This document shows, in pieces, positions 3,120 to 61,632 of a stretch of 64,000 nt of DNA. The DNA is taken from NCBI GenBank assembly GCA_965649765.1, contig OZ287749.1, positions 39,928,001-39,992,000 on the forward strand, read 5' to 3'. A program made the position numbers and the translations under genes. The stretch's first letter is position 1. Each line of letters opens with the position of its first letter. The notes beneath the pieces are model-generated. The model was not told the DNA's origin and searched no databases. It saw nothing but the letters and a program-made list of their open reading frames with translations. This DNA comes from Bispira polyomma. Its lineage: Eukaryota.

Positions 3120-4645
3120 ATGCTATAAAGGCTTTTTACTGTAACACCCTATCTACGGTACAACTAAACAATGATTTGACAAACTGGTTTGTAACAGAAT
3201 CCGGGGTAAGACAAGGGGATAATTTGTCACCTACACTATTTAATGTATACTTAAATGACTCGGTCATTGAACTTAATAGTCGCAAACTTGGAATCAGTAT
3301 CAATGATACTGATTTGTCTTTTACTATATGCAGATGATATTGTTTTGATTAGCGAAAATGAAGATAATCTGCAACAAATGTTGTCTGTTGTAAATCAATG
3401 GTGCTCAAAGTGGCAAATGAAAATAAATGCAAAAAAAAAAAAAAAATAGTACATTTCCTTAAAAGCAGAATGATACAAACTAACTTTAAATTTAGTATGA
3501 GTGACAATCAGCTGGATATTGTCAAAAATTATAAATATCTTGGTATAATTTTAGATGAAAATTTAATCTTCAAAGAATCTTGACAAACTTTGAGTGGTTC
3601 AGTTAGCAGGACTGTATCTTCAGTAATATCAAAGTTTTATACTGTAAAATATAGCTCGATTGGATACAATACTTTCACAAAATTGTACGACAGTGGTGTA
3701 AGATCTATTTTAGACTAAGCAGCAAGTGTATGGAGTTATGGTAATGATAAATATATGCAAAAAATACAAAATCGTGCAATCCGTTATTTTCTTGGTGTCC
3801 ATTAAAATAACCAAATTCTAGGTTTACAGTCAGAAATGGGGTGGTTGAATATTAAGTATTATTATTATTTGTGTACCTTACGATATTGGAATTGTTTAAT
3901 GAAAATGAGCCATGAGTGGTTGACAAGAAAAATCTGTGAGAATGATCTTAGAAACATTAGTAATTATAATTGGTCAGGTAATATTTACACTGTATAGTGG
4001 AGAAACTGAATGCTGAAGAATGTTTTGTAAATAGTGATGCATTTGACCTTAAAAATATTAAAGAAAAATTATTTAACTTATTGGACATTGACTGGTCAGA
4101 AAATATACCAAGTATGCCAAAATTAAGAAACTATGTTCATTTTAAAAGTGATATTGAAGCTGAAAAATATTTAAAAGTAGCATTAACACGCTCACAAAGA
4201 TCACTTCTTGCTCAGGTTCGTCTTGGCATATTACCACTGATAATCGAAACAGGTCGATACTATAGAACCCCCCTTGATGAGAGATTGTGTAAAATATGTA
4301 ATAAAGAATTGATTGAGGATGAAATTCACTTTTTATGTGTATGTGATTATTATGATCAGGAGCGTAAAACCTTGTACGATGAGTAAACTGTTGCAGGGTT
4401 TTTATGATTTTGATATTTATGTTAAACTCTATTAAATAATGCAGGATTGTCCAAAAGAACTAGCCTTATATGTAGAAATTATCTCGAATAAGTGTAAGGC
4501 ATTTATTGAAGTACATTAACTAGTCAAACACAACTGTATAGGTATTTTGAGTGACTTATAAGCCCAGAGGGTTGGACAACATTTGTTTTGTTTTTGTATC
4601 ACATGTATTATTGTAATGTTACATGTCACTAAAATAAATAAACTA
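3120..4645 (+). mobile_element. Decayed non-LTR retrotransposon (RT with C-terminal Zn knuckle, RTEX-like)
   Basis: GVRQGDNLSPTLF, LLYADDIVL, YKYLG, IETGRY..ERLCKIC..EDEIHFLCVC; many stops and frameshifts; ends near AAATAAATAAA. Confidence 0.85.
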
Positions 4646-5816: not shown

Positions 5817-7790
5817 TAAATCTAATCTAATCTAATCGTACTTTTATAGCACTTAATCTTTGTACAACAAATTCTAAGGTGCAACTAACCTAAGCATTAA
5901 TCAAAAAAAAATCAGAAATGGGGGACGGATGGTGGTCATAACCAGAGAGACTACCGGGATGGTTGCGATGGCTAAGGTGGAAAGGCCTGTTCGAAAAGGT
6001 AGGCCTTCAGTTTACTCCTAAAAGAGGAGAACGTTTGAGCCAAGTGAACATGATCAGGCAGGCTGTTCCATATGAAGGGGCCATCATGAGCAAGGCAATG
6101 ATTGAAATGTACTTTGGATTTGTGGATGCGAGGGTCGAAAGTGGGAATGTTAAGATATAACTTATCAGGGTTGCTGCTCCTAGTCCTGACTGAGCATGTA
6201 TATTTGGATAGATGGGGGCTGAAATAGGTGGGTGATCCAGAATTTAGAAATTTCTATATAATTGTTGCAATTTTGAAAGCAACACAATATTTTATTGGGA
6301 GCCAGTGGAGTGACTTAAGTACAGGAGTAATATGAGAAAATTTAGAAGTTTTGGCCACGATGCGAGCCAATGAGTGTTGAACGTTCTGAAGACATTTGAG
6401 GTCACTACAAGATAGGGAACAAAACAGAGAGTTGCAGTAATCAAGCCTACTGCTGACCAAGGCGTTGGCAACAGCGATTGCAGTGGATTTGGTTAGATAA
6501 CGACTAATTCGCCTGAAATCACAGAGGCCAACAAAACATGATCTACACACGGATGCAACATGGTTGGAGAGGGAGAATTCAGAGTAAAACAACACACCCA
6601 GGTTGCGTACTTTGTCAGCTGGGAAAAGCCTGCTGCCAAGAATATCAACTGGGAAACAGCTGGACAGTTTTTCCCGTTGCAACTTGGAGCCAAACAAAAT
6701 AAACTCGGTCTTATCAGGGTTCAGCTTGAGTTTATTTGCTGCCATCCAGTGTTGTACATCAACAAGGCAGTTCTGTAAGGAGGTGAAAGCTGCCTGAGCA
6801 GAATCGGGTGTAAGGTGGATGTACAATTGGGTATCATCCGCATAGAAGTGAAAGTTTATGTTTTTGTATGCAGCAATGATCTTGCTGAGTGGGGTGGTAT
6901 ACATTGAGAACAAAATAGGACCCAGGACTGAGCCCTGGGGAACCCCAAATTTTAACCATGTAGGGTCGGACAAGATGGTGCCAATTTTGACCGATTGGAA
7001 TCTATCAGACAAATACGCCGTGAACCATTTAAGTGCAGTACCGTTGATACCAAACCAAGACGATAGGCACTCAAGAAGAACTTTGTGATCAATAGTATCA
7101 AATGCCGCCGACAGATCCAGCAGTACTAAGGCAGTAGGCATACCTTTAGATAAAGATATATGAACGTCATTTTTGATGCAGAGTAGTGCAGTCTCTGTAG
7201 AATGACCACTTCTGTACGCTGACTGATACTTATTGCATAGATTACTAACATCGAGATGTTGTTTGATCTGTAAGGCAACCACACGTTCAACCAACTTAGA
7301 GATATAGCAAAGGCCTGAGACAGGACGGTAGTTTTTCAAGTCAGCCTTTGGGAGAGAAGATTTTTTTATTAAAGGAGTGACAATGGCTTTTTTAAAATCA
7401 TTTGGAAAGACGCCATTGACCAATGAGAGGTTAACAAGTTTGGTGATTGAGGGCAATAAAATGTCAATACATTCCTTAACAAGGAATGTAGGCCGCGGAT
7501 CTAACAAGCAAGATTTTATGGGTGATGTAAGTATAATTTTCCTGACCTCATCAACAGTTACTGTGGAGAAACGGTTGAAGATGGTTGGTAGAGCTGATGG
7601 TAAAGGAGCATTTGGGGCAGCTGACGTAAAACTATCACGGATTCTGGTAATTTTATCAGTAAAAAAAGTACTAAAAATGTTTGCCAGTGATTTACTATTG
7701 CTGTTGTCGGGTAGTATAGTCTGTTTTTTCTGGTGTAGGGTGCTGTTTAATTTCTCCCAGAGTTTCTTTGAGTCACTTGGCTGCACATTT
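5817..7790 (-). mobile_element. 5'-truncated CR1/L2-like LINE with a 510-aa open RT segment
   Basis: NYRPVS, YQSAYR..HSTETAL, LDLSAAFDTIDH, GVPQGSVLGP, YADDTQ, LHWLP; (GATTA)n tail at 5817-5837. Confidence 0.93.
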
Positions 7791-8539
7791 GCCGTATACA
7801 GGTGCTTCTTGTTTATGTGCCGTATATAAGACCGGAAGATTGTAACTACGGCTGCGCAATCAGATCTACGAACTGGCTTATTGTCTGTCTTACGTGATCA
7901 AAAACCGGCACATCAAGGGTATATAACAACTGTGGGCGATAATGAAGGATTACTTTCAAATATAGTCAAAATAACGACTGACACTTCACAGATTCAACTG
8001 ATTCAGTATAGTGGGGACATACATACCATATAAATTAATTTTACAGGTACTACTGTATTTGTCGCTAGTTAAAATAACATTTTTTGACTTGTCCATCGTT
8101 TTGGGTTAACAAAGAAGTAAACAAATTGCACGTACTAAACCTACGTACCTACAAAAAGTTGGAAGTGGAAGGGTGCGGTTGGAAGGGTGCAGGGGTGCGG
8201 TAGAGGTGCACGGGTGCGGTAGAGGTGCGGTACTTCTCGATCAATTTAAATAGACTTCCCTTTAATGTATGCCATGTTATTTGGTATCAACATGTAGGTA
8301 AGAAAGTACTGAGAATTATACAAATGACTAAAATACTGTATTCGATATAACACCTCAGTCCCAATTGATTTTAATTGGCCCCTTTCTACTTCTACTTTAC
8401 TTCTGTGTAAATTAAGGGATACAAAGACAAGTGGTTCTGGGGAGACTGATATTTATACAGTTATATATGGACTATAAACTAAAAATCGAAAGGTGTTCTC
8501 TTGGAGTATTTTCCTGGTTATGATATCAAAAATCAAATT

Positions 8540-16200: not shown

Positions 16201-19200
16201 GAGGTGCAGCTTCCACTAGAATTAAGAGGAGCACCATGAAACTCCCAAATGTATTCATAGCTACAGCACAGTGTACAAAACAAAATAATTTTTAACATTT
16301 ATCAAAATTTTATAGTTATTAAAAGAGGAAAATAAAAAGAATATTTCTTAATTACTTCAGTTCAAAATGTTTTCAGGCTTTTTTTACCATTAATGTTTTC
16401 TGACACCTTTTTGCACTTTTATTATATTGCGATAAAAAAGAAGAAGCTATATTCACATAGGAAACTTTACATTTAGCCCCCTTGTTTCTATTACAGCTAA
16501 AACAGTCAGATTTTTGGTGTGGCCAAAATTATGTTCTGCTAAATTTTTTAAAGTTAATATTATTATTATTATTAATTTATAACGTGCTTATTGATGCTAT
16601 TGTTTTTTATGCTATTTTTATGTGGGAGGTCTTAATTGGTAATATTTAACGGAAAGGTTTTGACTTTGATAAAACATAGAGTGCATTTATCACACTGTGA
16701 TAATAGGTTTTGACTGAGGTAAAAAGTGCCCATTTGGCTGTACTTTTAATCTCAGCATAATAAACCGCTAAATGTGCCTTTCATGTTCTGTTGCTCTTTC
16801 AATTTAAAACTTAATTTTTTTTTGATTTGCAGCAATATTTTTCTGTAATTCAAGCCTTTTGATTACTTTTGGCATTTTTGTCTTTCATGTTCTTACGTTT
16901 TTTTCGAACTGCTTCTGAAGAGTATTAACATTCGAGTAATGACTTTAGAACTTCTCTACACCTCAGCTACTTTACAGAAATGGTATTTTGAAAACATAAA
17001 AAGCCACGATTTTATGCTATATTTCGAGAGACATACCATATAAACATCTGTTTTTGAAAAGACTTCACCCATTTTGCTATACAAGCTCTGTGTCATCAGC
17101 ATAGTAGGGTACTTAACAGATTTATACGAGTTAATGTGCGACATATGTAGTGTATATAACTAAAAAAGAATTAAGGCCAATTTTGGCCTGGAATCAAACC
17201 CAGAAATAAGAAATAACCATTTTAATTTTCCCAATCAAACTTTAATCTAAGGTGAAAAGATCGTCATTCAAGAGGTGTTCCATGGTTAATAGTGCTAAAT
17301 TACCCTAATTTTTTATTTATAATAGCGCAGTATCTGTTCAATGCCCACACTTGTAAGCAGACTGCTATTGGTAATCTACACCATTGCTTTCTAATTGTAC
17401 CTTGATCTATTCTGCAATTACCTTTCCCCCAAATTTTCTAACAAATAACTTAATCCTGACATTCGTCCATAGTATTTAAGGTAATCCTTATGGAATGGTT
17501 AGATGTATATTAACTCAGCTACACTCTTTGCCAATGAATTTGTTCTATCAGGCCTGTCACAACTTACCTAGTGAGGTCCTAATAGGCCTCTAAAGTGGTA
17601 ACCTTCCAGGTAATGTCCAATCAGTTACCAAGCGATGTTGTATCAGGTTTGTCCTAATGTACCTAGTAAGGTTCTGTCCGGCCTGTGATAACTTACCTAG
17701 TAAGGTTCTGTCCGGCCTGTGATAACTTACCTAGTAAGGTTCTGTCCGGCCTGTCATAACTTACCTAGTGAGGTTCTATCTTGCCTGTGATAACTTACCT
17801 AGTGAGGTTCTGTCAGGCCTGTGATAACTTACCTAGTGAGGTTCTGTCCGGCCTGTCATAACTTACCTAGTGAGGTTCTGTCAGGCCTGTCAAAACTTAC
17901 CTAGTGAGGTTCTGTCAGGCCTGTCATAACTTACCTAGTGAGGTTCTATCTTGCCTATGATAACTCACCTAGTGAGGTTCTGTCAGGCCTGTCATAACTT
18001 ACCTAGTGAGGTTCTGTCAGGCCTGTGATAACTTACCTAGTGAGGTTCTGTCCGGCCTGTGATAACTTACCTAGTGAGGTTCTGTCAGGCCTGTCATTAC
18101 CTACCTAGTAAGGTTCTGTCCGGCCTGTCATTACCTACCTAGTGAGGTTCTGTCCGGCCTATGATAACTTACCTAGTAAGGTTCTGTCCGGCCTGTGATA
18201 ACTTACCTAGTGAGGTTCTGTCAGGCCTGTCATAACTTACCTAGTGAGGTTCTGTCCGGCCTGTCATAACTTACCTAGTGAGGTTCTGTCCGGCCTGTCA
18301 TAACTTACCTAGTGAGGTTCTGTCAGGCCTGTGATAACTTACCTAGTAAGGTTCTGTCAGGCCTGTGATAACTCACCTAGTGAGGTTCTGTCAGGCCTGT
18401 GATAACTTACCTAGTGAGGTTCTGTCCGGCCTGTCATAACTTACCTAGTAAGGTTCTGTCAGGCCTGTCATAACTTACCTAGTGAGGTTCTATCAGGCCT
18501 GTGATAACTTACCTAGTAAGGTTCTATCTTGCCTGTGATAACTTACCTAGTGAGGTTCTGTCAGGCCTGTGATAACTTACCTAGTGAGGTTCTGTCCGGC
18601 CTGTCATAACTTACCTAGTGAGGTTCTGTCAGGCCTGTCAAAACTTACCTAGTGAGGTTCTGTCAGGCCTGTCATAACTTACCTAGTGAGGTTCTATCTT
18701 GCCTATGATAACTCACCTAGTGAGGTTCTGTCAGGCCTGTCATAACTTACCTAGTGAGGTTCTGTCAGGCCTGTGATAACTTACCTAGTGAGGTTCTGTC
18801 CAGCCTGTGATAACTTACCTAGTAAGGTTCTGTCCGGCCTGTCATTACTTACCTAGTGAGGTTCTGTCCGGCCTATGATAACTTACCTAGTAAGGTTCTG
18901 TCCGGCCTGTGATAACTTACCTAGTAAGGTTCTGTCCGGCCTGTGATAACTTACCTAGTGAGGTTCTGTCAGGCCTGTGATAACTTACCTAGTAAGGTTC
19001 TGTCCGGCCTGTGATAACTTACCTAGTGAGGTTCTGTCCGGCCTGTCATAACTTACCTAGTAAGGTTCTGTCCGGCCTGTGATAACTCACCCAGTGAGGT
19101 TCTGTCCGGCCTGTGAGGTGGTAACCAGAAGACAGCTACAGTCAGACAGGAGAGGAATACACATGGCAGTGTGAGGATGTAGGTAGAGAAGACAACCTTT

Positions 19201-22200
19201 CTGTCCAGTATGAGCTCATATACAATGACAGTGACGTGACGTGGGGAGTTACTGGGCTCATACATTGTCTTGGCTGAAGTGTTCACTATGGTCCAGGCAC
19301 TGGCCTCCTTAAAGTCCTCACCCCAGTTACTCAGGTCAAAGCTTCCTGGAGTACAAATACAATGGTCAAACACCAATACAATGGGATTACATGCCCAGAT
19401 AGCATTAAATCTTACATACAATCCAATGTTTGCTAAGTACTGGTATCTGACATGAGCTAAGACAGATAGATAATAAGACCTTACTAACACAGAATGGTAA
19501 GAACTGGGGGTGTAGTAGTTGTCGTCAGTACTGGTACTGTATGTGACAGTACTTACAGAAAAGGAAAAGCTCATCAGTGCAAGAATCAAACAGTTACTGC
19601 ACTGAGTATATATATGTCACAGGCCAAATTAAAATCCAGGCGGATTTGAACTCCGCCTAGGCGAGATTAAAATTCTAATCTCGCCTAGGCGGAATCAAAA
19701 TTGTAATCTTGCCTAGGCGGATTTAAAATCCGCCTAGACCAAATTAAAATTTTGATTTCGCCTAAGCGGAATTAAAATTTCCAAGTTTGTCTAATAGAAT
19801 TTTAATCTCGCCTAGGCGGATTTATAATCTGCCTAGACCAAATTGAAATTTTGATTTCGCCTAGGCAGATTTTAAATCCGCCTAGGCGATATTAAAATAG
19901 GGGGAATTAAAATTTCAGATTGGGGGAAATTTCAATTATTTCATTTTTGTATGCAGTAAAAGTATGGATAACAGCCTTAAAATTGAACTCATTTTATTTC
20001 TTAATAAAGCACTTTGCATTCATGGTTTAAAACATTAATTCATACATGGAATATAGTAATTACATTAATTATTAACAACATTTCTGTATAAAGCACTTTT
20101 CATTCATGGTTTAAAACATTAATTCAGACACTACCAAGTGCTACCAATTCATTCCTGGGCACATATAAAAGAGCAGTGCACCAAGAAAGTCTTTGGGGAT
20201 TACCACTGTGAAGTTTTTGAAAAGGCATAAATGATTATATATTTAACCCTTTGGGAGGCATGTGATTTTTCACTGCAAATATCAATTGCAATTACAGTGT
20301 TTTACATTCTATCAGGGCAGTGAAGAAATCAGGGGAAGTACTGAGACAAAGACAATTGCTAAACCAATTAATGACAATAAACAGTAGGTGGTCATATAGG
20401 TAAGACAAATAATAGACAGACAAACAATAGACATAATATAAATGTTATTATTTAAATTATTTCAGTAATCCTTATATGTTGTATACTTCAGTACTTTACC
20501 AATAAATACAATTCCAAACCTTTTGACACCCAAAAAGTACCCCTAATAAGGCTATATTACACTGATAATACACTAATATTACATATTAAGCTAGTAAAAA
20601 ACATTGGATTTTAATGTAGTGTAGGGTAAACAAAACCAAAAAATTATTGGTGTGGTCAAGTTTAAATTTTACCCAGGCATACAGCCTTTTAATTAATGCA
20701 GTTACTATAATATTCCATGTATGAATTAATGCTTTGAACCATGAATGGAAAATGCTTTAAAAAGAAATAAAATAAGTTCAATTTTAAGGTTGTTATCCAT
20801 ACTTTTATTGCATACATAAATGAAATAATTAAAATTTGCCTCAATCTAAAATTTTAATTTCCCCTATTTTAATCTCGCCTAGGCGGATTTTAAATCCACC
20901 TAGGCGATTTTAAATCCGCCTAGGTGAGATTAAAATTCTAAAAGACAAACTTGAGAATTTTAATTCCGCCTAGGCGAAATCAAAATTTTAATTTGGTCTA
21001 GGTGGATTTAAAATTCGCCTAGGCGAGATTAAAATTTTGATTAAAAAATCCGCCTGGATTTTAATTTGGCCTGTGACATATATATATTAATTTTTAATTA
21101 GATTTTAATTTGGCCTGTGACATATATATATATATAGTAATTAATACAGTGGAGCCTCCACTTGGCAAATATTTTTGGAGAAAAAAACTTTGAGTAAATG
21201 TAAATTTGAGCCAGTATAAATGTGTTTAGGCTAACTTCTGATATTACAGGTTCAACTGTGTTAGTATTAACTTATGGTAATATATTTGTAAGCATGTATT
21301 ATTTTCTACTGCATATTTAACTAATTGTATTTTTACACCATCCTCCAATTATAAAAGGTGAATTTTAAAATATTAACGGTGCATACACACTCTTGCAGTT
21401 TAAGTTTGGTCTGCAAATCAACTCAACTTTATGAGTTTATCTAAAAGGTCTCTGCCCTTTCCCTCATTATATACCAGGTAATGTTTAAAGATATCACGAA
21501 TTTAATTTCAATATGATACAACTGAACAAAAAACTAACATATCTTAAGGTATCAAAGAGATTCAACCCTCTCAATTAGGGCACATGGTTTTTTTCTTAGA
21601 CTTTACAGAGTCAGATGTCAATTAATTGACTCTATAATAAGACAGATAAAGCAGACGAATTAGAGTATGTGCAGGAAAATAATAAAAGAATCTTTCTTCT
21701 AAATGATTTGTTACAGTGGTCAATACAGAGTAAAAATATTAACAGTACCTAGGCAGTATCAGTTTACTAAGTGTTTTCTGGTACAATAAATAAAACTATT
21801 AACATGTAACCTATTCAACAGAACAAAAAAAAAAAACAATTGCTCTCGGTCTCACGTTCGATTTCAAATCTAAAAATACCTATAAGAACATCAAGCATTC
21901 ATATCTGGATCAAGGCAAATCAGAAATATTTTAAATGGACAAGCTCTGAACAACTATTTGCATGTATAAAATGTGGTATACAGACATATACGGGCCTGCT
22001 TCAGTGTATTGTAATGCATAAGATAAGAATATCAACCAGTGGTCTACTTTAAATTTAACTTCTAGCTGTTTTCATTTGTCAGTGATTTGTTATCGATCTT
22101 GTGATTGATCGGTGACCCATGTCAAATTTACTTTTGGGGTTGGATCAGCAAGTGAGTTATTTAAATCCGTGTGATTTATGGGCGGCCCACTTTTAATCTA

Positions 22201-25200
22201 TATCTAATTCTGATTGGCCAGTTAGTTGTTTCAATCCTTGTGATTGGTCGGTGACCCACATGTAATTTATATTTAATTTTGATTAGCCATTGAGTTGTTT
22301 CCATCTCTGTGATTGGTCAGTGACCCACCTCTAATGCCTATGTCCAGTTCAGTGGTGTTGTAGAGCCAGGAACCCATGAGTAGCTGACACTTCTGTCTGT
22401 CAAAGGGGAAGTTGGTGAGGTTGAGAGCACAGGACACACTGTAGAGGACCAGTGTGTAGTGGATGACCTGGCCCGTGTATCTCACTGTGGCAGAGGTATC
22501 CCTGCTTGTCTTCTGGACATTGCCTCTGTAAGCATATGCACACGTGCACACGTGCACAAAAGTTTAGGCCTCTGTAAGTATATGGACATGTGTACAAATG
22601 CTCAGGCCTCTGTAAGTATATGGACATGTGTACGAATGTTTGGGCCTCTGTAAGTGTATGGACATGTGTACAAAGGCCTCTAAAAGTATATGGACATGTG
22701 TACGAATGTTTGGGCCTCTGTAAGTATATGGACATGTGTACAAATGTTTGAGCCTCTGTGAGTATATGCACATGTGTACAAATGTTTGAGCCTTTGTAAG
22801 TATATGCACATGTGCACAAAGGTTTGGGCCTCTAAGTATATGGACATGTGTACAAATGTTTGGGCCTCTGTAAGTGTATGGACACGTGTACAAATGTTTG
22901 GGCCTCTAAGTATATGGACATGTGTACAAAGGCTTGAGCCTCTGTAAGTATATGGACATGTGTACAAATGTTTGGGCCTCTAAGTATATGGACGTGTGCA
23001 CAAATGTTTGGGCCTCTAAGTATATGGACATGTGTACAAATGTTTGGGCCTCTGTAAGTATATGGACATGTGTACAAATGTTCGGGCCTCTGTGAGTATA
23101 TGGACATGTGTACAAAGGTAGGGGTAATATATAAGGGCTGGTGATTCATAAGCAAAATCAGCATTTTTTTGAGTGTGCATTGCATAACATGTCATGCCTG
23201 TGCTTTTATCGAAAGTATCTTTTAAAATATGGTTATTGTAAAAACTGAAGTTAAAGCCTGTATTGGTGATTTATCCAACTTGTTACAATTAATTAAGTTA
23301 AAGGAATTCTTCTGGTATCCACAAGATCGTGCCTTTATTTGTTGCTGACAAGACAAGAGCACTCAAAATGCAGATTTGGCGTATTTTGCCATGGTGTGTA
23401 TTTGTAAACTAATACCGCCATTTTGCACAATGTTTTCTGTGTCCCATATCTACATAGATCACATCAAAGCCCATCCAATGGTAAAACCAGATACTATTTA
23501 AACCTATTGTTATCAGCTGAAGGTGTAAATTAGTTGGTTTTGAAATTTGAAAGTCTTTGGTCATATTTGTGACGGTCAGATTTATTGGAGACCACTAACC
23601 TAAGGTACAAGTACTGGGCACACTTTCCCACATAAAGGAAGTAGACTTCTGCACTGTTCTCAGAGCTGATAGGTGGGGATATTAAAACAGGTGATTCTGA
23701 CCACCATGGCCCCAATTATCAGCTGGTGAACTGAAGATGGTACCTTTGTCCAAAAAAAGCTGTTGTGTTTTGTGAGTTTACGTTTGTGTAGCGGGCAGCT
23801 TGTATTAGTCTAATAATATTAACATTTGTTGTAGAACTACAACAAATCATTATAAAAACCTCCATGTTAACAATGTTTTCTCATGTCTTGTATTACTATG
23901 CTGTCAATTAAAATTTGATTAGTGCTATCGCGAAGTGGTACAATGGTAGTGAATTCATTTGGTATTGCAAAGTATAATATATAGTACCTACCCATTGAAA
24001 CAACTAAAACAAAGATCTAGCCAACATGTGTATAAACATGGCCATTTGAAAAAAATCCACGATTGGCAGAATTTTGAGCAGTTAAACACATTTTTGAGGA
24101 AATCGCCTACTTTCTTTGCCCATGGGAAAATTCCCAAATTGCATATGGTTGTTTTATCCTTAATACAGAGTGATGAAGACATGCCAAACCTCTATAATTA
24201 CTTGACATGTGTGGAATATAGCTTCTAGAAAAAGGTGGAGACTGCTACAAGTAAGAATACTTTCTACTTTTTGTCCCTTAATTTTCTACTTTTATATGAT
24301 ATTTTTGTTCAGTAACAGCGTAATCTCAGTGGGCGAGTATTTTAAGGTGCATGAAAAAAGACATCCTGCAAAGGTGCATCAAAACAACACCATGGAAAGG
24401 AGCATTTTAATGTCCTCTATTACTGCACTGTTAATTATATTGGTAACGTGGAGGTTGTCAGAATGGCAGTAGTTATTTGGGGTAACAAATGTTGGTAAGT
24501 GTTTTTAGAAGTATACCACTTTCGAGCTATACAAGGGAGCATGAATAAGACACCTTGTAAAAGTTCTTTAAATAAGACACCTTGCAAAGGAGCATAAAAT
24601 AAAATACCCTGCAAAAGTGCATGAAATAAGACACCTTGCAAAGAAGCATGAAATGAGACATCTTGTAAAGGAGCATAAAAGAAGAAAAAGACCCCCGACA
24701 CACACATGAGAGGGAAACGGGAATAGATATTTATGGTTACCGGCAAATTTAAATTATAAACAGGTTATATTTTCTCCGTAAATTTAGAGTGAGTCTTCTT
24801 TTCGTGTTTTTTTTTCCAGTTTGTCCTTATTCCCAGATTCATATTTTACTTAGTGCCTCAAGAAAACAAGACACGATTTTTTTAATCAGTACAAAACTTC
24901 CAAGTGAGCCCTGGTAAAGAAGGGCCTTGTGACAGTTTCACTAATTTGTAAGTTGTACCAGTAATCCTGTCATTCTATTCCAGCTGTTGTCCCTAAGTTA
25001 TATATCCACCCTAGGACAATAAAATTAAACCCCTTGTGAGAATTAATTCAGGGCATATAAAGACATCGCAGAAATGGGTTATTTTTTTTCTGGTATTTAA
25101 CTGTTTACCAGTAACTACACTTTGTTTGACATTTTTTTTATTAGTTAATACTCAACTTTTTTCTATTTCTTGAAGAAAATAATGTATGTGTGGAAACCCA

Positions 25201-28200
25201 TAAAAGTTCGTGATACAGATTTACTACAGATCAATTTGTCACATAAAATTACATTAAACAATAATAATGTCTGTAGGGTACACCTCCTCGACTGGTGCCT
25301 TGTTACAAATAAAATGTCATGAACTTAGTTTTATTCCTAAATCTTGGTGAGATAGCTCTATAAAAATAAAAAGATCACCAAGATGCTAGTGTTAGGGTAA
25401 ATTTCTTTGTTGTAGTACACTATAATATATCAGATACCTTTAACTCTGTTCAATACGTTAATTAATAACACAAACAACAAGTATCCCTGTAAGTCAGCCT
25501 AGTTAAAAACTTCAGATAACAGATATGCAGTTTCATTTAAAAATTAAGCTTACCAAACTAAGCGATACTCCAAACTTTTATTGAATTCCTCATGGAATGA
25601 GCATTTTATTTATTATACATTTATCTACTTATCTGGTATCCAAACGCTTATGTATGTTTACTTAACTGCTCAAGTACAACCAACTAGCCCCAGCAACTGG
25701 CAATACCCTGGCTGAAGAGAGAAACTTGAGGAGAGCACCATTTATCAACGCCCTCAGGTTGGTTTAGCCTGCTGTTGGGGATAGGACCAGTCAACTGCTA
25801 TTTTAACTGGTCATCTGAGCCAGTATGTATCTAGCTATACACGGTCACTCAATGCTGGGATCAAACCCTGGTTTTCTGTGTTCCTGGACGAGAGTGTTAC
25901 CCACTAGTGAATTACAATTAAAATACTAAAAATGAGCAAATTATTGTAAGTGTCAGCTATACAAAAGACACATCAGAAGGATGTTTTAGTTCGGTTATTC
26001 AAAATAAGTTTTATTCCCCTATATGGCTGTAGTAATTAATATACCTCGCTAAATGAAAATATCACATGCAATAACACTTAATTAACAGAGCAATACAGCT
26101 GTTTCTAGTTAATTAACCGAGCAATTCACGGTTTCTAGTTAATTTGCCATACAATTTAATGGCTTGCTAAATGAGCTTGGTGCATTATTTTTGGTAATTA
26201 ATTGTAGTAGGTGACTTTATTTTAAATCTTAGGAAGTACGCTTTTGTAATAACTATTTTAAGTATGATATCTACTTGATCTCTTCCTTCTGTCTATATTA
26301 TCAGAATGCTATGCGGAGTGTGAAACATAGCACAAGATGAAGTAAATGGGAATCATGGTTCACCAAACGGCTGGTTGTAGACTTTTTGGACGTCAAAAAC
26401 AACTGGTTTGGCTAATACTACAACACATGGAAAGGCATTGTGCTATACAATGGAAACTGATAAAAAGAATGTATTCAAACACCTCTTCATAGCATTGTCC
26501 ATTTTTTTCAGGGTGTGTGTGCTTTAGTTTATTTAGGATTTATGTTGTTACCAGGGGGATGGCACATAAGAACTAGTGTCTAGGGAGTTAAACTGGTTAT
26601 TAGGAGGTTCCCAGTTAACTTGCACTTTGGAAATTAGTCTAGTAATAAGATCACTAGTTAATCTCATAGTATCACCTTAATGGTGATTGTGGTGACTAAC
26701 AAGCTTGGGTAAGATGTAAAGATCCAATTTGACTGCTGATGAGGGTTAATTAGCCGTGTATTAGGATCACGATTAATGGTTTGTCAATTCTGATGTTGTG
26801 CTTCAAATGATGCCTGACATCAACAGGGCACCTTAAAAATCCACAGTTTAATTTAGCGTGACTTCCAACAATGTTAATGTCACATTATTTCAGCCAGGTT
26901 GTTTGGTGTAGGAACCAGTGGGATTTGAGCTACTATTTCGGTGTGAGGCAAGTGATCCTGCTTTGAGTACTTTAAATGGGCCTGTGTCATAAGCCAGCAT
27001 TGAACCAGGGACTTGGTGATCACGATACCTGCTCCCTTACCACTAGGCTACATGGGACCTGTCTGTAGTCTCCTGTAGTATACAGTTAAACTAAGTGGTT
27101 GTGGATCGTTCACCACTGGTCATTTGTCATCATATTATAAGACTGTTTGCTGGTGGTGGATATTATTGGTTAACTGTTGGAAACTATTATTATAATACTC
27201 ACGTGTTATAGAGTTGTATGTCAGGCATCCAGATAAAGCTAGGGTCAATCCTCAACTTGTCCACTCCCCCATACTGATGGGGATCCCACCTCAGGAACTC
27301 GTCCACCCACATCTGTTAGTATAACCACACAGTACAGGAGAAGGACCTGTTAATATTTAACTACATTACCATGGTAAACTTATATTTACTTAAGTTTCAT
27401 TTTACCATGCCATGTTGCATTCTCAAAGAATGAAAAACTTATTATACATTACTTAATTTATAGTGTACATATCTTTGCATGCACTCAAATACTTAAGTTG
27501 TGGTGTGTACATATCTTAGTATGCACTCAAATACTTAAGTTATGGTGTAAATTTAACAATTAAATTAGTTTTTAGTTAATATTGTGGTTGCATGCAATTG
27601 TGGTTATATTATATGTTGCAAATATTTATACTAGGCATACAATCTGCTCCAAATTACACTAGTCCTGTCCAGATCACACAAGTTCTGAGCAGGTTTTTCC
27701 CCGTTTATGCCCGACCACACCCATTATCTCCAGGTCTCTCCAGATGTGCTTTTAGAGCCGACAACCCACGGAGGTTTTGAACATGTTTTAAAATTCAGGG
27801 AATCAGAAAACTCATTATTTTCGAGTGCATACTACATAAGTCTTTGTTATAGTAGTCCGGTTCCTGAAAATGCTGAGCCTTGATTTTGGTTTGCATTTAG
27901 ATTTTGTGTCCTGATTGAATCTAATAAGTATAGAATGACTTGTTTTGGGAGACAACATAAACTTCGTTCAGTTACTTGAAGTCACAACCCCACATCTAGG
28001 GATGTTACTAATCAAACTTATCCCTATCAGTATATTCAGTCCAAGTCATTACACTACTCACATATCTGGTCCATACACTAAGGTTTAGAGTTTTTCTCTT
28101 TTCATCGAAGGTCATCTCTATGAGTGCCAGGTCAAGGTTGACCTTTACTGTAGAGGTCACGGAGTGCACTGGTCTGGCAAACACAGAGCCTTGCAGTGAG

Positions 28201-31200
28201 TTGTAGGCAGTAAGTATGTCATGAAGGAGTCTCCTTTCCTCTGATGACCTGTAAAACAGAGCCGAGAGACTTAAACTTACAGCTGGACAACTTTGCATTA
28301 TTTCGTAGCACTATCCATGGGCTGCGGTGGCCTAGTGGTTAGCAAGCATTGCGTTTCACAATCACTGGTCTCTCACCTCTGGTGTGGGTGAGTTCGAATC
28401 CTGTCGATGCCTATGTGGGAAAGGTGGTAGTTCCTTACTGTGGGCCGCTTGTTTCAGTGCAGAACCTTGATCAACTGTATGCAGTGTTTCCTCCAGCGTT
28501 TCCAACTACCCGTCCCAATATAACCTAAACAGGTACTAGAGTGGATGTCAAATATCGTAGCACTATCCAACAATATATTATAATCAAACTTTTATAGTGC
28601 TTAAGCTCCATTATAGTGGATTCTAAGGCGCATTTATCATTATCATATTCAAGTTTCGTAACGTTTTTTGAGGGAAGGTGGTTGTATCCAAGGTGATGCT
28701 GGACTGAATATGTAATTAAGGAGGAAGGGGTGTAGTGGCAATGATTGCTGTTAATATGTAACATTTTTAGTAAATATAGGTATATTAATTTACAGTGAAA
28801 CTATCCAGTTCTATATGTTATGTATAGTGTAATTTACTGTATCTTTGCTGGAGTTGATTTAAAATTTTACTTTATAAAACCTGTTTGAAACGATGCTGTA
28901 CAGTTGGACAATGTACGATTTACATGTTTAAAGGAATAAGTTTGGTTTATTAATCAGTTAAAATTAATTGGTGTGTACTCGAACATACAACCAAAAAGAT
29001 ACATAGAGATAAATCAGAAACAGTTATCGGTTGTTTTAGTTAAATGGTGATTGCACTATGCCAATTTGGTCCCCGACCTTTCCGATTTTTATGTCCGGAG
29101 CAAAATTTGTATAGGTCCAGGTGCAAAAATGGGGCGAACATGCTGCTCGCAAAAGGTATCCAACATGCTTAATATTTTTAAAAAGTCCCCCGGACTAGCC
29201 CCTCGACCTCTAAAAGCGGGAAGGTCGGTATCGCCAAATAAGTTTGATCTTATTGTTATTACGTTCTGTCTGATAGGTCTTATCTGACGCCCTGTCGTAA
29301 CACTGGCCCCGTAAAGTATAGGTCGTGGGTGAAAACGGGGTGAATGTAAAGAATATAAAACCATTTTGTCAGTTATTTTGCCATAGCAGTCCCGATTTTG
29401 ATTATTAGAAGCACGATCATGATAAACGGGGGGCTACAGATCCGTCAGATCCTATCGCCAATAAATTCGATCCTATCGCCAGTAAGTTTGATTCGAGGGC
29501 AATACGTCAGATCCTATCGCCATTAAGTTCAATTAAAAGTAAATAAATAAATGTTGACAGTGTTTGTCTCTTTGTAATTATACACACTAACTTAGGACAC
29601 TAAAGTAACAAACAGTATACATGTACTGTTTAGTAGAGTTACTGCTGATGAATGGACAGAACAGTGTAGATAACTATTAAAAGGGGTTAACCTCACAACC
29701 GTAGCAACAGTTAAAGGCTGTACAAGGTACAATTGAGAAATGATTGACAGATTATTTAGCTTGACAACGAAAAAAAAAGATTCTAATCATGAAATGTCAA
29801 ACTGATATTTTTTATAATTACGAAATTAATGCTTTTCAAAAGGAATCCATTTAAAGAGAGAGTGATGCCTGCTTCGTAAAGTAAAGCTCCTAGTTAAAAA
29901 AAACTAAGTTAGTATTTCTTTATTGTAAAAAAATAGTAACAAGTTGATTAATTTTTCAAATTCACTTGGAGCCTGCTTTGAAACTTGTGAGTAGAGTTAA
30001 AAAACTAAAGTCTTTCAGTGTGTGTGTGTGTATAAAAACACAATGAGATTTAGTAACAGAATTTTTAAGAGCTTTAATTATTGTAATCTAATACCTACTT
30101 GAGATCTGTAATTAAAGAGGACAAGGGGGCATCAAGTATCAGGAGTTGGGCTATATGACACTCTCCCCATGCCATAAGGCTCATCTTAACAACACGGAGG
30201 ACAGATACATTACCTCTAAGACCTAAACATACACCTGATCTCACCATTCTCCTGCCGGCAAAGATTTCTGACAAATTTTTGGCTAACTTTGCCCTTTATA
30301 GCAATTGTCTTCCAAAGTAACCTGTTTATTTACAAATGTCAACATTGGGTACTGAAAGTATAGACTATTTTTTTAGGAACCTTCTTTACCTTGCTTACTT
30401 GGGTCCAACATATTTTTAATAAATTATTTTTTTACAGCATTGGGTAAGGTATTGCATATTGTATTGCATGTTTCATTTCTAACACGCTTTATGGATAATA
30501 TAATCAGCATGTGGTCGCAGTGGTCTAGTGGTTAGACTGTCAGATTTTGGATCTGAAGGATATGAGGCTTCAGTTCGATCCTCACTGCAGGCCTGGAGAT
30601 TGTATACTTGGACAAGGTATTTCCCACAAAGTTGTCCCTCTCTATCCAGGTGTATAGGGAGCTGAGAGTGAACAACCGGTTGACAAGTGGAAGAGTCCAG
30701 GTTGGGGTGTCAACTGTGTACAGCTACATTTACATATGATAGGAAATGTATAACCAAGTTGTAGACATGCCAAAGTAAAACCCTGATACTTGCAGGACGT
30801 AAATAGGCTATTTTGTTAAAGCTTGATTGTGTACAATGTATATGTTACAGTGAATATGCGTAATCAGATATTATTAGGTAGTTGTTACACAGATTCACTG
30901 AACAAAATTCAGTGAATATGTGTAAGGGATAAACGTTATTTTCTCATAAAATTATGTAACAATATGCACATTAAATGGTTTATGGATTCTTTTAATGAAA
31001 TTAATTAATATCAGATACAAGTGTAACTGTTCAGTTTTACACATCTCAAATATGTTTAAGGGATTAAAGTCATTTTTACATAAAATTTATGTTTAAATAT
31101 GCACATAAAAAAATTATAAGTTCTGTCATTGAAAAAAAATTAATTATGTATTAATGTGTATGAGGGATTATACATATACTGTATTAATATTAATAGGATA

Positions 31201-34200: not shown

Positions 34201-37200
34201 AATGCCATTGTATACTGATGATGACCAATGCCAAGTTGTAGGGCTATCTCTTCTTGGAGGATAAAATATCAATTTGGTGCTGTATAAATTCTTCAAATGA
34301 ATAAAATAGAACTGATTTTTATCCTTATCTTAGAAAAAAAGACATATTTCACTCATCAGTTCTGCCGTAAAATAACATGAATTCCTTGCAGCTTCTCCCT
34401 TTAATATACAGATGTATACAGGGCACAGTATAAGGCATCACAGCAAATTACAAATGTAAAAAATCCACTTCATAAAAGCTGACAATTTTGCTCCGAAAGA
34501 CCACACCCTTTCTTATTAATACAGGAATAAGAGTGAGACTAAAGTTCAAAGTATTTTTTCCACAATCCCTTCTTACCATTTGTGAGGACACTTTCCACGC
34601 TGTTAATCATCCTAATGGTATCAGGAAGTCTGACTGAGATCACCCCAAACTAATCATGTTGTGTTGCAGTTTTTAAAGACTAGCAGGTATATGGTGTTTA
34701 AAGTAGGACAGAACATTATATAGGAACATGGCTTGTAATATAATGGTGCTGGATTGTCTTTGAAATCTTACAATGGAAGTAAAGTATCAGTGACTGAAAA
34801 ATAAATTAGAAATCTATTGTATGCGTTGTTTGGTTAAGAAATTCTCTCTGTTGTTTTGTGAAATAATAATTAAAGTTTGTAGCTTGATCCAGTGTGTGTC
34901 CTTGTATAAAGAAATGAAGTGTGTGATTTGAGAGAGATGGAGGAACAACATTAGCTGGCAAGAGACGTACTGTTGAGTGATACATACATGGAGGATGATT
35001 CTAGTAGAGACCGTTAAAACAGCAACCTATCTCTAGTACAACGCCTATACTGTCTACATCCCAATATACACTATTCAAATAGATACAAAGCAAAGGAGGG
35101 GCCTCTTTATCAACTAACTGATTTATTTTAAGTACAGCATTTATGTTTTACTGTTCTAACATATATAACTTTTTTTTTCTAATATATTTCTTTGTTTATT
35201 TCAGGAATTCCAAGCAATATGTGTGATAGGTTATTTTGTCTAAAAACCGGACCAATATGAAGATGTATGGAGGATATAATTGTACTGTTCCACTATCATA
35301 AATGGTCGGAGAGACCCTGATTATGCGATTGTGAGCAATTCTTGGTGTTTCCCCATGATGTTTTAAAAAAGAGCGGAAAAAAATGCGTCACCACAATCAT
35401 GTTTTACAAACATGCTGATAAGTCATAATCATTATGATCGACCTCCCCATTTGGTAAAAATAAGTCATTGGAATCCCCTGACCTCTCCGATAAGTCGTTA
35501 GCATTACGTTTGATTGTCCCGATTAGTTGTCAGGATCACATTTTTTGGCTACCAACCTCCCCGATTGCTAAAGATAAGTTGGAACTGCTTAGAATCTAAA
35601 AAAAATAGGTCATAAGAGCCTTACGATTGAGTCGTTAGACAGTAAGATAACACAGCCGAAGGTGATCCAGATCAAAATCTTGGTAATAACAATCAGCGGG
35701 TAATATTATTATCAAACACTATATAAACGAGGGTATAAACTTGAATCCAGACAGTTTTAATCCAGACGTCAAGTGATCAACATGGTTCCACAAAGAATAA
35801 TAAATCTAGCAAATGAACTTAGTGCTGTAATTGCCTACATGCAAGCGGGGACGCGTTGGCCTAGTGGTTAGCAAGCATTGTGCTTCACAATCACTGGTCT
35901 CTTATCTCTAGGATAAACTGGCGTGGGTTCGACTCCCGCCGATGCCTATGTGGTAAAGGTGGTAGTTCTTTACTGTGGGCCACTGGTTTCAGTGCAGAAC
36001 TGTGATCAACTGTATGCAGTGTTTCCTCCAACGATTCCAACTACCCGTCCTAATATAACCCAAACAGGTACTAGAGTGAACGTTAAATATCCCAATTTAA
36101 TTCAATTCAAAGCCTACATGCAAGCACAACTAATGGTTATTATGGACACGCCAAGGTTCTGGATCAAGCCATGGCTCAGGGAAAGGGAAGAACATGGACA
36201 CTACACACCACTCATGCCACGCCTGAAGCTGTTGTATTTCAGGAGATGGAGAGGAGGGTGAGGTACTGGTTACAGAGACATACCACCTGGTACGTGAAGG
36301 CACTGGCCCCTAGACTCAAGATAGCCATCACTTTGAGGCATTTGGCTACCAGGGAGTCCTACACATCGCTACAGTACTCGTTCGTGGTGGGCAGGTCACC
36401 CATAACCAAGTTTGTGCCTGGAGTTTGTCAGGCCATTATTGATGAGTACCAGGAAGAATTCCTCACATGCCCCACCAGCACCAACGACTGGAGAAAAAGG
36501 TCGAGTCCGTGTTCCAGAACACGTGGAACCCTGGGAGCAATAGACAGCAAATACATTGCTATGATATGCCAGAGAAAAGGTGGGAGCGAGTATTTTAACT
36601 AAAAGGGTTACCACTCAATCATCGTGCTTGCACTGGTAGATGGGGATTAGCATTTCCTGTGGCTTGACATAGGTTCAAGCGGCTCATGCTTGGATGCCCA
36701 GATTTTAAACAGATCCAAACTGAAGGAGAAAATAATGGACAAGTTAATCAATTCCCCCCCCCACCCTGAAACATTAGTCCCGTCAGAGCCCCTGTCCCAT
36801 ACTTCATCCTAGGAGATGACGCGTTTGCTCTAAAGACATGATTGATGAAACCCTACTCCCGATGAGGGGTGGACATGAATGAAAGGTTACACAATTATAG
36901 GATCTCCTTTAGCCGTAGAGTAGTCCAAAATGCATTTGGGATTTTATTCTAGAGATTCTGGATGCTTCTGTCTACAATGCCGCAACAGCCACCATAGATT
37001 TAGCATGTGTGGTCCAGCACAATGTGATGAGGACTGCAGCTATCAACATGGCTAATCCAGATAATCCACAATATGAACCACCTGTCCCACTGATAGCAGC
37101 ACGTGTTGGAAGAAACAACCTACCCAACTGTAGAAATCCCAGCAGGGCAACAAGAGAACAGAGGGAGTTACTCATGCAATATTTCACCAATGAGGGGGCA

Positions 37201-38064
37201 GTGCCCTGGCAAAACGCTTGAGTTTGAGCCTACACCTGAATAAAAGATAAATCGGGATGAAATTTCAAATAATTTATAGGAATAATAAAAAGATAGGTTA
37301 TAATTAGGTTACAATTAGACTCAATTGGCCCTAATTGATTGACCATGCCACCGATATTCGCCCCTGCTCACAAACATGTTTGAAAACCTCTGCGACCTCT
37401 GCAATTGGAAACAATAAGTCGTTGGAACCCTGACCTTCCTGATAATTGCCCCGATCTTATAATCGTAACGATCTGGGTCTATGATCGGCATAGCGGAACA
37501 GGGGTATAATACAACATGCTGTTAATATATCTAGAACATACCTTCATGAAACAATATTTGTCATTATCATAATGTTATAGCATAATGACATTGCACAGAA
37601 GTCAGCATAATATACAAAACTTATAATAAAAAACACTAAAATGCAGACAGCCGTAAATATGAGAATGTTAAAATGCTAATTGTCACCACTTCCACTCTTC
37701 AAGCTTTACTGACAGAACTACAGCATAGTATAAAATGAGTTACACACAACATATCCAATGTATTGAGAATGATCATTCTTCCAATTACAATTCCTTGGCC
37801 TTTTAAATCATACTAGATATATTGGGCCAAGTTTCAAGCAGTGACGCAAAATAAAGCGAGGAAGTGATGCAGAATTAGTAAATTTTTCTATAAATTAATT
37901 GAATTAATAAGCCTCCAATACAAAACAATACATGTTGACATCTCAATGGTTTAGGTTTAAAGTTCCTACCCCTCATTGTCAGTGATGTTGTCTGCTAGGA
38001 TGACTGTCGGTAACAGAGAGCACAACAACACTTCCCACAGTGTGGCCTTGAACCTCTTCATCAT
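12872..38064 (-). CDS. Cys-loop ligand-gated ion channel, nAChR-like non-alpha subunit (8 coding exons, 484 aa; span given, spliced)
   Basis: Manual joining gives one open frame: signal peptide MMKRFKATLWEVLLCSLLPTVILA; EERRLLHDIL; W-x-D-x-x-L-x-W...IWMPDIQLYN; Cys-loop C-ALNLTNFPFDRQK-C; GSW; M1 (YILTLPCVFLSCLTVAVFWLPP), M2, M3, and M4 preceded by DW..LDRIF; TAG at 12874-12872. Intron phases 2,0,2,1,1,1,0 all match. Confidence 0.93.
14046..14490. mobile_element. PIF/Harbinger-type (Tourist-like) MITE
   Basis: About 35-bp TIRs GTGAACGTTTCCATGCAGGAAACTTTTTGAGGCGA / TCGCCTTAAAAAGTTGCCTGCATGGAAACGCTCAC; TTA TSD on both sides; in the last intron. Confidence 0.85.
15553..15665 (-). CDS. Receptor coding exon 7 (M3: VYYCFNIVSIVLAIILSTVVVNF...PLPACILK)
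   Basis: Acceptor ATTGTAG, donor AAG|GTAAAA; lies within ORF 15469..15681. Confidence 0.92.
16174..16260 (-). CDS. Receptor coding exon 6 (M2 and M2-M3 loop: AMNTFGSFMVLLLILVEAAPPTTATVPLLG)
   Basis: 87 nt, phase 1-1; acceptor GCTGTAG, donor TGG|GTAAGT; conserved P-x-T...VPLLG. Not in the ORF track. Confidence 0.92.
17542..19116. repeat. 34-bp minisatellite (about 43 units) made of the exon 5 3' end plus 5' splice site
   Basis: Unit AACTTACCTAGTGAGGTTCTGTCCGGCCTGTGAT; clean from about 17660, degenerate at 17542-17660; the last unit overlaps exon 5. Confidence 0.97.
19091..19345 (-). CDS. Receptor coding exon 5 (loops F/C, M1, M1-M2 linker)
   Basis: SFDLSNW...LILDRKVVFSTYILTLPCVFLSCLTVAVFWLPPHRPDRTSL; acceptor TACTCCAG, donor CTGG|GTGAGT. 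Confidence 0.93.
19615..21078. mobile_element. Foldback/MITE-like element with about 400-450-bp inverted arms, inserted in (TA)n
   Basis: Termini TGTCACAGGCCAAATTAAAATCCAGGCGG / CCGCCTGGATTTTAATTTGGCCTGTGACA; arms at about 19615-20070 and 20690-21078; many palindromic CGCCTAGGCG motifs. Confidence 0.88.
22040..22328. repeat. Degenerate 69-70-bp tandem repeat (about 4 units) anchored on the exon 4 donor
   Basis: GTGATTGGTC.GTGACCCAC-like motif at 22101, 22171, 22240 and 22309. Confidence 0.7.
22329..22525 (-). CDS. Receptor coding exon 4 (Cys-loop and loop B)
   Basis: CALNLTNFPFDRQKC and GSWLY; acceptor GCTTACAG, donor AGAG|GTGGGT in phase 1. Confidence 0.93.
22522..23117. repeat. 36/38-bp minisatellite (about 16 units) made of the exon 4 3' splice site
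   Basis: Unit TGGGCCTCTGTAAGTATATGGACATGTGTACAAATGTT; on the sense strand it reads ...CATATACTTACAG|AGGC versus the real acceptor CATATGCTTACAG|AGGC. Confidence 0.95.
24535..24680. repeat. About 27-bp minisatellite (GCATGAAATAAGACACCTTGCAAAGGA-like, about 5 units)
   Basis: Direct inspection; explains the repetitive ORF 24435..24746. Confidence 0.7.
27203..27312 (-). CDS. Receptor coding exon 3 (MWVDEFLRWDPHQYGGVDKLRIDPSFIWMPDIQLYNT)
   Basis: 110-nt exon with the WxPD/LYN (loop A) motif; acceptor TACTAACAG, donor AC|GTGAGT. Not in the ORF track. Confidence 0.95.
28062..28248 (-). CDS. Receptor coding exon 2 (N-terminal helix to loop D: SSEERRLLHDIL...LSVWTRY)
   Basis: Acceptor TGTTTTACAG, donor TAT|GTGAGT; lies within ORF 28008..28298. 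Confidence 0.92.
28318..28554 (+). mobile_element. tRNA-derived SINE family A, copy 1
   Basis: GCGGTGGCCTAGTGGTTAG / GAGTTCGAATCC Pol III boxes; 15-bp TSD TCGTAGCACTATCCA (28303-28317, 28555-28569). Confidence 0.92.
30511..30812 (+). mobile_element. tRNA-derived SINE with a CORE-like middle; related copy at about 53790-54055 (-), degenerate copy at about 34090-34290
   Basis: GTGGTCTAGTGGTTAG...GTTCGATCC, CTGCAGGCCTGGAGATTGTA..CTTGGACAAGGTA...CCAGGTGTATA shared with the reverse complement at 53970-54055. Confidence 0.7.
32502..33490 (+). mobile_element. Solo LTR (989 bp)
   Basis: TGTTAC...GTAACA inverted termini; 5-bp TSD ATACC (32497-32501, 33491-33495); TATATAAG at about 32910 and AATAAA at about 33398; internal duplication in the 5' part. 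Confidence 0.85.
35782..37221 (+). pseudogene. PIF/Harbinger DDE transposase pseudogene (element extends roughly 35240-37505)
   Basis: FWIKPWL, KIAITLRHLAT..SY.SL, GAIDSKYI, KGYHSIIVLALVD, FILGDDAFAL..LMKPY, RRVVQNAFGIL; stops and frameshifts; interrupted by a SINE. Confidence 0.88.
35847..36111 (+). mobile_element. SINE family A, copy 2 (nested in the Harbinger transposase)
   Basis: Same head and body as copy 1; (TTCAA)n-like tail; 14-bp TSD GCCTACATGCAAGC (35833-35846, 36112-36125). Confidence 0.92.
37970..38064 (-). CDS. Receptor coding exon 1 (start codon and signal peptide MMKRFKATLWEVLLCSLLPTVILA-DNITDNEG)
   Basis: Acceptor TTTCTTATTTTCAG (AG at 38079-38078), ATG at 38064, hydrophobic core, donor GG|GTAGGA in phase 2, which matches exon 2. 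Not in the ORF track. Confidence 0.8.
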
Positions 38065-60739: not shown

Positions 60740-61632
60740 ATTATGAACTACTCTAAACTAAAATTTAACCCGCACAAAAGAGAATTCATCCTCATAGGAA
60801 ACAAGAAAAACAGTGAACTCCTAAAATCTTTGTTTCCCATCTCCATGCTGGGAAAAGACATACTACCTTCTGAAAATGCCAAAAACCTGGGTGTCACTTT
60901 TGATTCAGCGTTTTTGTTCGACACTCATATTGCCAACATCTGTCGCTCCTGCCATTGCCATATACACGACATCAAAAGAATCAGAAACCATCTGTCCATG
61001 GACACAGCGATAACTGTGGCAAAATGCCTTTTGTGAGTAGCCGCCTCGACTACTGCAACTCTCTTTTGTACGGAGCAAACAAGTCACACATTAAAAAGCT
61101 CCAGTCCATCCAAAACTACCTATTTAAGGTCATTTTTCGCCTGGGTTGTCGCACAGACGTCACTCCTTACCTCAAAAAATTGCACTGGCTGCCCATTCAT
61201 TCTCGTATTTTGTTCAAGATTCACATTACTACTTTTAAGGCTGTAGTCACTCAACAGCCAACTACCTTGCCTCCCTTTTGTCCTTCAGTAACCTCAAGAG
61301 AGGCAATAGACTCTCTGTTTCTTTGGTAAGACCAGTCAGGAAGGCAGGATCCAGATCGTTCTTCACTGCAGCTCCACTGTTATGGAACAATCTCCCAGTC
61401 AACCTTAGATCAGTTGACACACTTATCGGTTTTAAGAAAAAGCTGAAAACCTATCTTTTTAATCTTGCCTACCCACCTTAGCTTCCCTCGTGCACACTCC
61501 CACTTCCCTCCTTACGACTTTGCAATGTCCATGGACTTAATGATTGGACCAATGATTCTGCTGTTGCGCTTTAGAAGATGCCTAGCACCAATAAAGCGCG
61601 TTAAAAATTCCTAATAACAATAGTAACAATAT
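60740..61632 (+). mobile_element. 3' fragment of a CR1/L2-like LINE
   Basis: LKFNP.K.EFILIG, KNLGVTFDS, SRLDYCNSLL, LHWLP, FKKKLKTYLFNLAYPP*; 3'UTR and an (AAT/AAC)n-like tail. Confidence 0.88.

Follow-up and report, generated by a model that had tools for sequence, protein, structure and literature searches.

The window, a stretch of 64,000 nt from Bispira polyomma (contig OZ287749.1, positions 39,928,001 to 39,992,000), carries on its minus strand a gene predicted to encode an intact acetylcholine-receptor-like (nAChR-like) Cys-loop receptor subunit with four helices. When the last AG upstream of exon 4 is used as 3' splice site, an open frame of 452 aa runs across seven exons from 28248 to 12872. 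The features of this subunit class are present, namely a C-x13-C loop, the WxPD motif and ligand-binding and transmembrane domains. The exons were assigned as follows:

28062..28248, minus strand: exon 2 (N-terminal helix), no Pfam match by itself
27203..27312, minus strand: exon 3, ending in WMPDIQLYN, donor GT at 27202 (PF02931, E 1.2e-10)
22329..22525, minus strand: exon 4, the Cys-loop exon, 197 nt, donor GAG/GTGGGT (PF02931, E 9.5e-17)
19091..19345, minus strand: exon 5, end of the ligand-binding domain and M1 (PF02932, E 1.5e-4, under the cut-off)
16260-16174, 15665-15553 and 13282-12872, minus strand: last three exons, which complete an intact four-helix Cys-loop subunit

A signal-peptide exon upstream of exon 2 was not located. 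The introns flanking exon 4 have lengths of 4677 nt (upstream) and 2983 nt (downstream). Exon 4 had no homologue in a protein search, and the named matches of an intronless receptor paralog were limpet proteins with 36-40% identity, which is too weak for a class assignment. The window also holds remains of LINE-type reverse transcriptases (5975-7897 on the minus strand, 60695-61478 on the plus strand, 1-299, and 3077-4383 on the plus strand), one of them with an open stretch of 547 codons. Broken transposase pieces at 35917-37218 (plus strand) are presumably Harbinger-like, judged from their translation, and a very high-depth short element at 28319-28382, in the intron upstream of exon 2, is likely a tRNA-derived SINE.

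The 3' splice site of exon 4 lies at the end of a tandem repeat, for which the following features were determined:

22522..23122, minus strand: acceptor mirage of 16 units in tandem, each 32-46 nt long (mostly 36/38), split at AGGC
22572..23091, minus strand: 14 intact decoy YAG/AGGC acceptors and one broken copy (unit alignment, translation)
22526..22527, minus strand: AG of the real 3' splice site, GCTTACAG/AGGC, in the last unit (frame and paralog spacing; predicted to be the site used in the RNA)
22564..22566, minus strand: in-frame TAA within CCTAAAC, which stops the in-frame decoys reaching it (translation)

Each unit consists of about 34 nt of the intron end and the first 4 exon bases (AGGC), and the units span the exon 4 junction and extend into the intron only. 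Tandem Repeats Finder delimited the array to 22548-23116 with a period of 38, 15.3 copies and 87% matches; the number of 16 units takes in the unit with the real acceptor. An earlier note on this DNA had counted about 15 decoy acceptors upstream of the Cys-loop exon. There are indeed 15 upstream copies, but only 14 retain YAG/AGGC (A of the AG at 23091, 23053, 23017, 22981, 22943, 22907, 22869, 22833, 22757, 22719, 22681, 22649, 22611 and 22573), while the broken unit near 22795-22792 reads TTACAA/AGGC and has lost the copied AG. The last unit (22567-22522, 46 nt) is the most diverged, with a mean of 7.9 edit events to the others compared to 2.7-5.5 for the rest. The mixture of 36- and 38-nt units inside the array suggests turnover.

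The 22-nt unit core was found in seven exact matches in the genome (1.035 Gb in 75 contigs, contig 2 including the window), all within the acceptor array, and the whole array has one match. Since the core is absent elsewhere, the array represents an in-place duplication of the intron/exon edge of this gene. A mobile repeat inserted here, or an assembly artefact, is extremely improbable given the uniqueness of the core. The copy number of a tandem repeat may be wrong in an assembly, but the units bear many distinct variants, and three DNA runs of one study, possibly the source samples, contain 64-87% of the sampled words of the window. Over 23125-28400 the coverage by these runs is even across introns and exons, letter differences and joined exons are absent, and the runs thus behave as DNA. 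The array has the defining features of a mirage: its unit spans the boundary, the copies are intronic, 14 of the 15 upstream copies keep the YAG, its origin is local and the host frame is intact. At the sequence level, it is an amphioxus-type "mirage" (in chicken, "exon stuttering"), an already described repeat type, here in a lophotrochozoan.

The use of the last AG as real acceptor, which had been proposed before, is supported by the open 452-aa frame and by the distance between the Asn of LYN and the first loop Cys. This distance would be 33 aa, and it ranges between 32 and 37 aa in 41 of 46 paralog junctions; the other five are apparent miscalls or contain an extra exon. Two in-frame exonic AGs at -21 and -24 were rejected as the real site, having scores of -8.1 and -1.7, which is below every percentile shown, and an Asn-Cys spacing of 25-26, which is too short.

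A set of upstream acceptors (the 14 decoys, the AAG of the broken unit, the CAG at 23139 and three secondary AGs) were joined to exon 3 and translated, and each resulted in a premature stop. The TAA at 22566-22564 is in the coding frame and the nearest decoy (+46) shifts the frame to a TGA at 22402-22400, exactly as the earlier note had read them, and its statement that all decoys are non-productive is borne out. This property is nevertheless ordinary, as 230 of 284 called acceptors of the genome have an in-frame stop within the 84 nt before them. In-frame stops are the default for intron sequence, so that the TAA and the frameshifts need no special cause. The choice of a wrong acceptor would end translation prematurely, with later junctions lying far downstream of the stop, and may feed nonsense-mediated decay, as had been suggested.

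Using a matrix derived from 289 called acceptors of the genome, the real acceptor scored 6.5 bits, which corresponds to the 26th percentile, whereas the array-free acceptor of exon 3 scored 5.7 bits. The polypyrimidine tract, previously described as not clear, is indeed weak, but this is not unusual here. The decoys scored between 2.1 and 7.0 bits, and six of 14 equal or exceed the real site. They are thus sequence-competent acceptors, and position or context has to choose, since sequence alone cannot. The earlier note had left this choice to exon definition or to structure. The former fits the 197-nt exon between long introns, and exon definition across exon 4 likely selects the real site. 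The first 30 nt of exon 4 contain 70% purines, compared to 47% in the sequence after the decoys. GAA-rich exon starts can serve as splicing enhancers.

Alternatively, the site could be set by scanning from a branch point and not by exon definition, if only the last unit had a usable branch point or context (CCTAAAC-TTTT and an extra GTGCACGT) that compensates for the duplication. The CCTAAAC around the TAA at 22566-22564 is, speculatively, a branch-point-like motif, and both the divergence of the real unit and its T in place of the C found in most decoys would be in line with this. However, no branch-point motif was found enriched in the 284 called acceptors, many other arrays have decoys equal in score to the real site, and end units escaping homogenization are described as a general feature of mirages (PMC3087553). 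This explanation is very unlikely.

The second proposed factor was structure from the palindromic motifs TGTACA, ACATGT and GTGCAC, a fold of which would have to mask the decoys while keeping the real AG accessible. The array region folds at -177.9 kcal/mol, with a z-score of -4.75 against dinucleotide shuffles. This control was rejected because such shuffles destroy the periodicity. Eight copies of the real unit fold at -56.3 kcal/mol, compared to -53.1 +/- 15.6 kcal/mol for 200 arrays of shuffled units, of which 36.5% fold at least as well (p about 0.37 under this periodicity-preserving control). Accessibility was mixed: over 3 nt the real YAG is the most open, with an unpaired probability of 0.59 against 0.05-0.50 for the decoys, several of which are about as open, whereas over 8 nt no site is more buried than the real one (0.004, compared to 0.025-0.33). 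The test for a structure-masked splice site was thus negative, and the palindromes were not found to bury the decoy AGs consistently. Furthermore, the other mirage units compared have no motif in common, and structure did not explain the human F7 case either, according to its report (PMC1557585). Selection of the real AG by folding, for which the z-score and the open YAG had spoken, is accordingly highly improbable.

Two further repeats at splice junctions were found in the same gene:

17660..19116, minus strand: donor mirage at exon 5, 43 x 34 nt, with about 25 exon and 9 intron bases per unit (repeat analysis)
22143..22335, minus strand: degenerate 69-nt x 2.8 repeat, which begins inside exon 4 and copies its donor (repeat analysis)

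With the acceptor array, the receptor gene holds three junction repeats. In the exon 5 array, all 41 decoy donors (36 of them AG/GTAAGT) outscore the real GG/GTGAGT, which makes it a harder test of 5' splice-site choice than the human F7 VNTR. Each of its units also carries an acceptor-like word, TTATCACAG/TTATGACAG. The degenerate 69-nt repeat is likely an older mirage; one decoy GT at 22259 scores 6.9, compared to 8.5 for the real exon 4 donor. As this repeat copies the exon 4 donor, exon 4 is bounded by junction repeats on both sides.

For the determination of the mirage rate in the genome, Cys-loop genes were surveyed in 30 loci and in 80 of 84 merged 10-kb regions from 107 further matches, of at least 151 Cys-loop matches. 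Seven loci of an intronless cluster were dropped, and splice sites were called for 292 exon hits. The criterion for a mirage was that the 18-nt word at the junction recurred at least twice on the intron side with its AG or GT retained, but not on the exon side. Myosin and aldehyde dehydrogenase genes served as replication set (81 of 87 matches, six from near-identical copies being dropped, in 53 regions), which comprised 163 exons once mirage copies were removed. All rates given here are subject to some miscalls by the automatic site caller and to the incomplete independence of paralogs.

Including the window, mirages were found at 10 of 279 acceptors and 11 of 255 donors of Cys-loop genes, and copies on the exon side only at none of either. 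Without the window, 9 of 274 acceptors remain, compared to 40 of 5975 pseudo-sites (Fisher p 2e-4, or 0.004 when two doubtful acceptors are removed), and 10 of about 250 donors, compared to 43 of 5899 (p 4e-5). Two clear mirages were missed because the site caller had picked a decoy. In the replication set, 7 of 158 acceptors had a mirage, compared to 74 of 5354 pseudo-sites (p 0.008), and 21 of 159 donors, compared to 130 of 7088 (p 9e-12). Pooled without the window, mirages occur at 16 of 432 acceptors and 31 of 409 donors, compared to 0.7-1.8% of pseudo-sites. Donors exceed acceptors in the pooled data (p 0.016), but the test words differ in design and the paralogs are not independent, and the Cys-loop set by itself has no such difference. 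Donor mirages were found to be more common in housekeeping than in receptor genes (21 of 159 and 10 of 250, respectively; p 9e-4).

The mirage signal drops to background 150-300 nt into the intron. The GC content of the flanks was rejected as a cause of the enrichment, since the pseudo-site rate hardly varies with GC (0.5-1.0% over the bins, sense strand). The 3-8 fold junction enrichment exceeds what a mutation process blind to place plainly predicts. Decoys score at or above the real site in 5 of 7 acceptor and 19 of 21 donor arrays of the myosin and aldehyde dehydrogenase genes, which shows that position decides. In-frame decoys without stop were found in 3 of 9 acceptor arrays (one doubtful) and 1 of 10 donor arrays outside the window among the arrays listed by hand, and in 0 of 7 acceptor and 2 of 21 donor arrays of the replication set, so that non-productive decoys are no rule of the mirage class. 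These stop-free cases (L083 1168, minus strand; L091 7997 and L039 2753, plus strand; L188 7831; L203 5170) could add residues if used and are candidates for exonization or intron gain.

Some donor mirages in the myosin and aldehyde dehydrogenase loci (L179-L231) are longer than 1 kb with translated exon-end copies, e.g., L225, L211 and L190, and such arrays will mislead gene prediction. Others nearly fill an intron (L074 4373-5511, L018 944-1446) and end about 15-45 nt from the next exon hit. Three near-identical multi-exon myosin copies are located at C11:4.17-4.19 Mb, C8:1.22-1.24 Mb and C13:27.29-27.31 Mb, and many near-identical intronless kinases of about 411-418 aa, possibly transposon-borne, are scattered over contigs. 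Kinase genes were left out of the mirage survey, as most of their matches lacked introns. At C3:80.83-80.97 Mb (L002-L006, L008, L025) tandem intronless nAChR-like genes were found, some with stops or frameshifts. An ordered one-strand Hox cluster lies at C13:17.02-17.89 Mb (L134, L128, L118, L115, L116, L122, L114), with genes that we take to be Post2, Lox2/4, Scr, Dfd, Hox3 and lab. A further gene of this cluster has KLTGP just after the homeodomain, the Lox5 signature, which is described to mark lophotrochozoans and flatworms (PMC5431905). Together with the limpet relatives, this identifies the host as a lophotrochozoan and not a lancelet.

A role of the array as a dedicated decoy or decay device, as might be read from the earlier note, is not supported; it is one of many splice-junction minisatellites in the genome, of a kind already described. 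A length-dependent rheostat would let more decoys cause more unproductive splicing and decay and so tune the receptor dose, the array being a splicing-QTL VNTR, either selected or as a side effect. The premature stops behind all decoys, the six decoys scoring at or above the real site, the three junction repeats in one gene and the catalogued human tandem repeats tied to splicing variation (PMC10078293) would agree with this. However, such stops are expected by default in intron sequence, similar arrays are at least as frequent in the myosin and aldehyde dehydrogenase genes, which are housekeeping genes, and the published mirages are reported to be silent (PMC3087553, PMC3902484). A rheostat is therefore unlikely.

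Amphioxus mirages have been described in Adh3, the globins BflGb6 and BflGb9, troponin C and PGBD5 and are reported not to disturb splicing (PMC3087553, PMC3902484). As described there, they share with the array the tandem copies over an intron/exon boundary, the AG or GT kept in most copies and the diverged end units, and acceptor and donor mirages occur together in one genome, as in this study. The unit size is inside the range of 10-72 bp given for amphioxus Adh3. The amphioxus host is a cephalochordate, whereas the array belongs to a lophotrochozoan, and its units include no more than 4 exon bases. For the amphioxus mirages, both normal splicing and length instability have been reported. 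In the exon stuttering described for chicken dot chromosomes (Hron et al., 2026; PMC12954441), the exon edge with its donor or acceptor is likewise expanded into the intron, in 1-44 copies and with the coding sequence intact. It was given for 3.4% of dot-chromosome introns, compared to about 4-13% of the sites in this genome, and was tied to the GC-rich dot chromosomes, whereas this genome has about 35% GC and the arrays lie on many chromosomes. No report of a genome-wide mirage rate in lophotrochozoans was found in the open-access literature.

In the human CBS 844ins68 allele, a duplicated intron/exon junction is reported to give normal mRNA, the distal, exon-proximal site being strongly favored; this is a single 68-bp duplication (PMC2630376), compared to 15 copies in the array. 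The 37-bp VNTR in human F7 intron 7 has nearly the same unit size and also spans a splice site, and its pseudo-donors were described as functional but silent (PMC1557585); pseudo-sites with perfect consensus did compete. As it is on the donor side, it matches the 34-nt donor array at 17660-19116. The exon 4 array, unlike F7, is on the acceptor side, where branch-point scanning would favor the upstream copies. Not every junction duplication is tolerated, as a 403-bp duplication in human FGG is reported to wreck splicing (PMC9052919).

We conclude that the array is probably a locally born minisatellite of the gene's own intron/exon edge and near-neutral, the spliceosome likely using only the last, exon-proximal acceptor. 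It could have arisen by a 38-nt tandem duplication across the splice site, which was expanded by slippage or unequal exchange, as the mixed 36/38-nt variants and the diverged end units would indicate. Exon 4 may be recognized across its 197 nt from the downstream donor, aided by its purine-rich start, so that the nearest AG with a whole exon behind it would beat look-alike AGs with only 4 exon bases. Human data indicate that the sites closest across the exon are favored when the flanking introns are long (PMC9225289). In the same data the upstream 3' site is preferred overall and long introns only reduce this preference, which makes some leak plausible. Transcripts leaking through decoys would be cleared by nonsense-mediated decay, which may lower the cost of the array without being its purpose.

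The single locus matters little, being a clean example of a described repeat type. The array is nevertheless a natural test of 3' splice-site choice, with 14 near-identical rival acceptors of which six reach the score of the real site, and the survey supplies a mirage rate outside lancelets and birds. The part worth pursuing is why mirages concentrate at splice junctions. A tentative and rather doubtful proposal is that germ-line mutation aimed at splice junctions, tied to transcription or splicing, has stamped copies on about 4% of acceptors and up to 13% of donors, mostly in housekeeping genes. Exon definition would make these copies tolerable, the lower share at acceptors would reflect a leakier 3' choice, and the arrays might feed a length-dependent decay leak and new intron positions. 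If junction-centered duplication is a directed mutational bias, it would bear on intron gain, on gene-model errors in marine invertebrates and on the protection that exon definition gives to genes with long introns.
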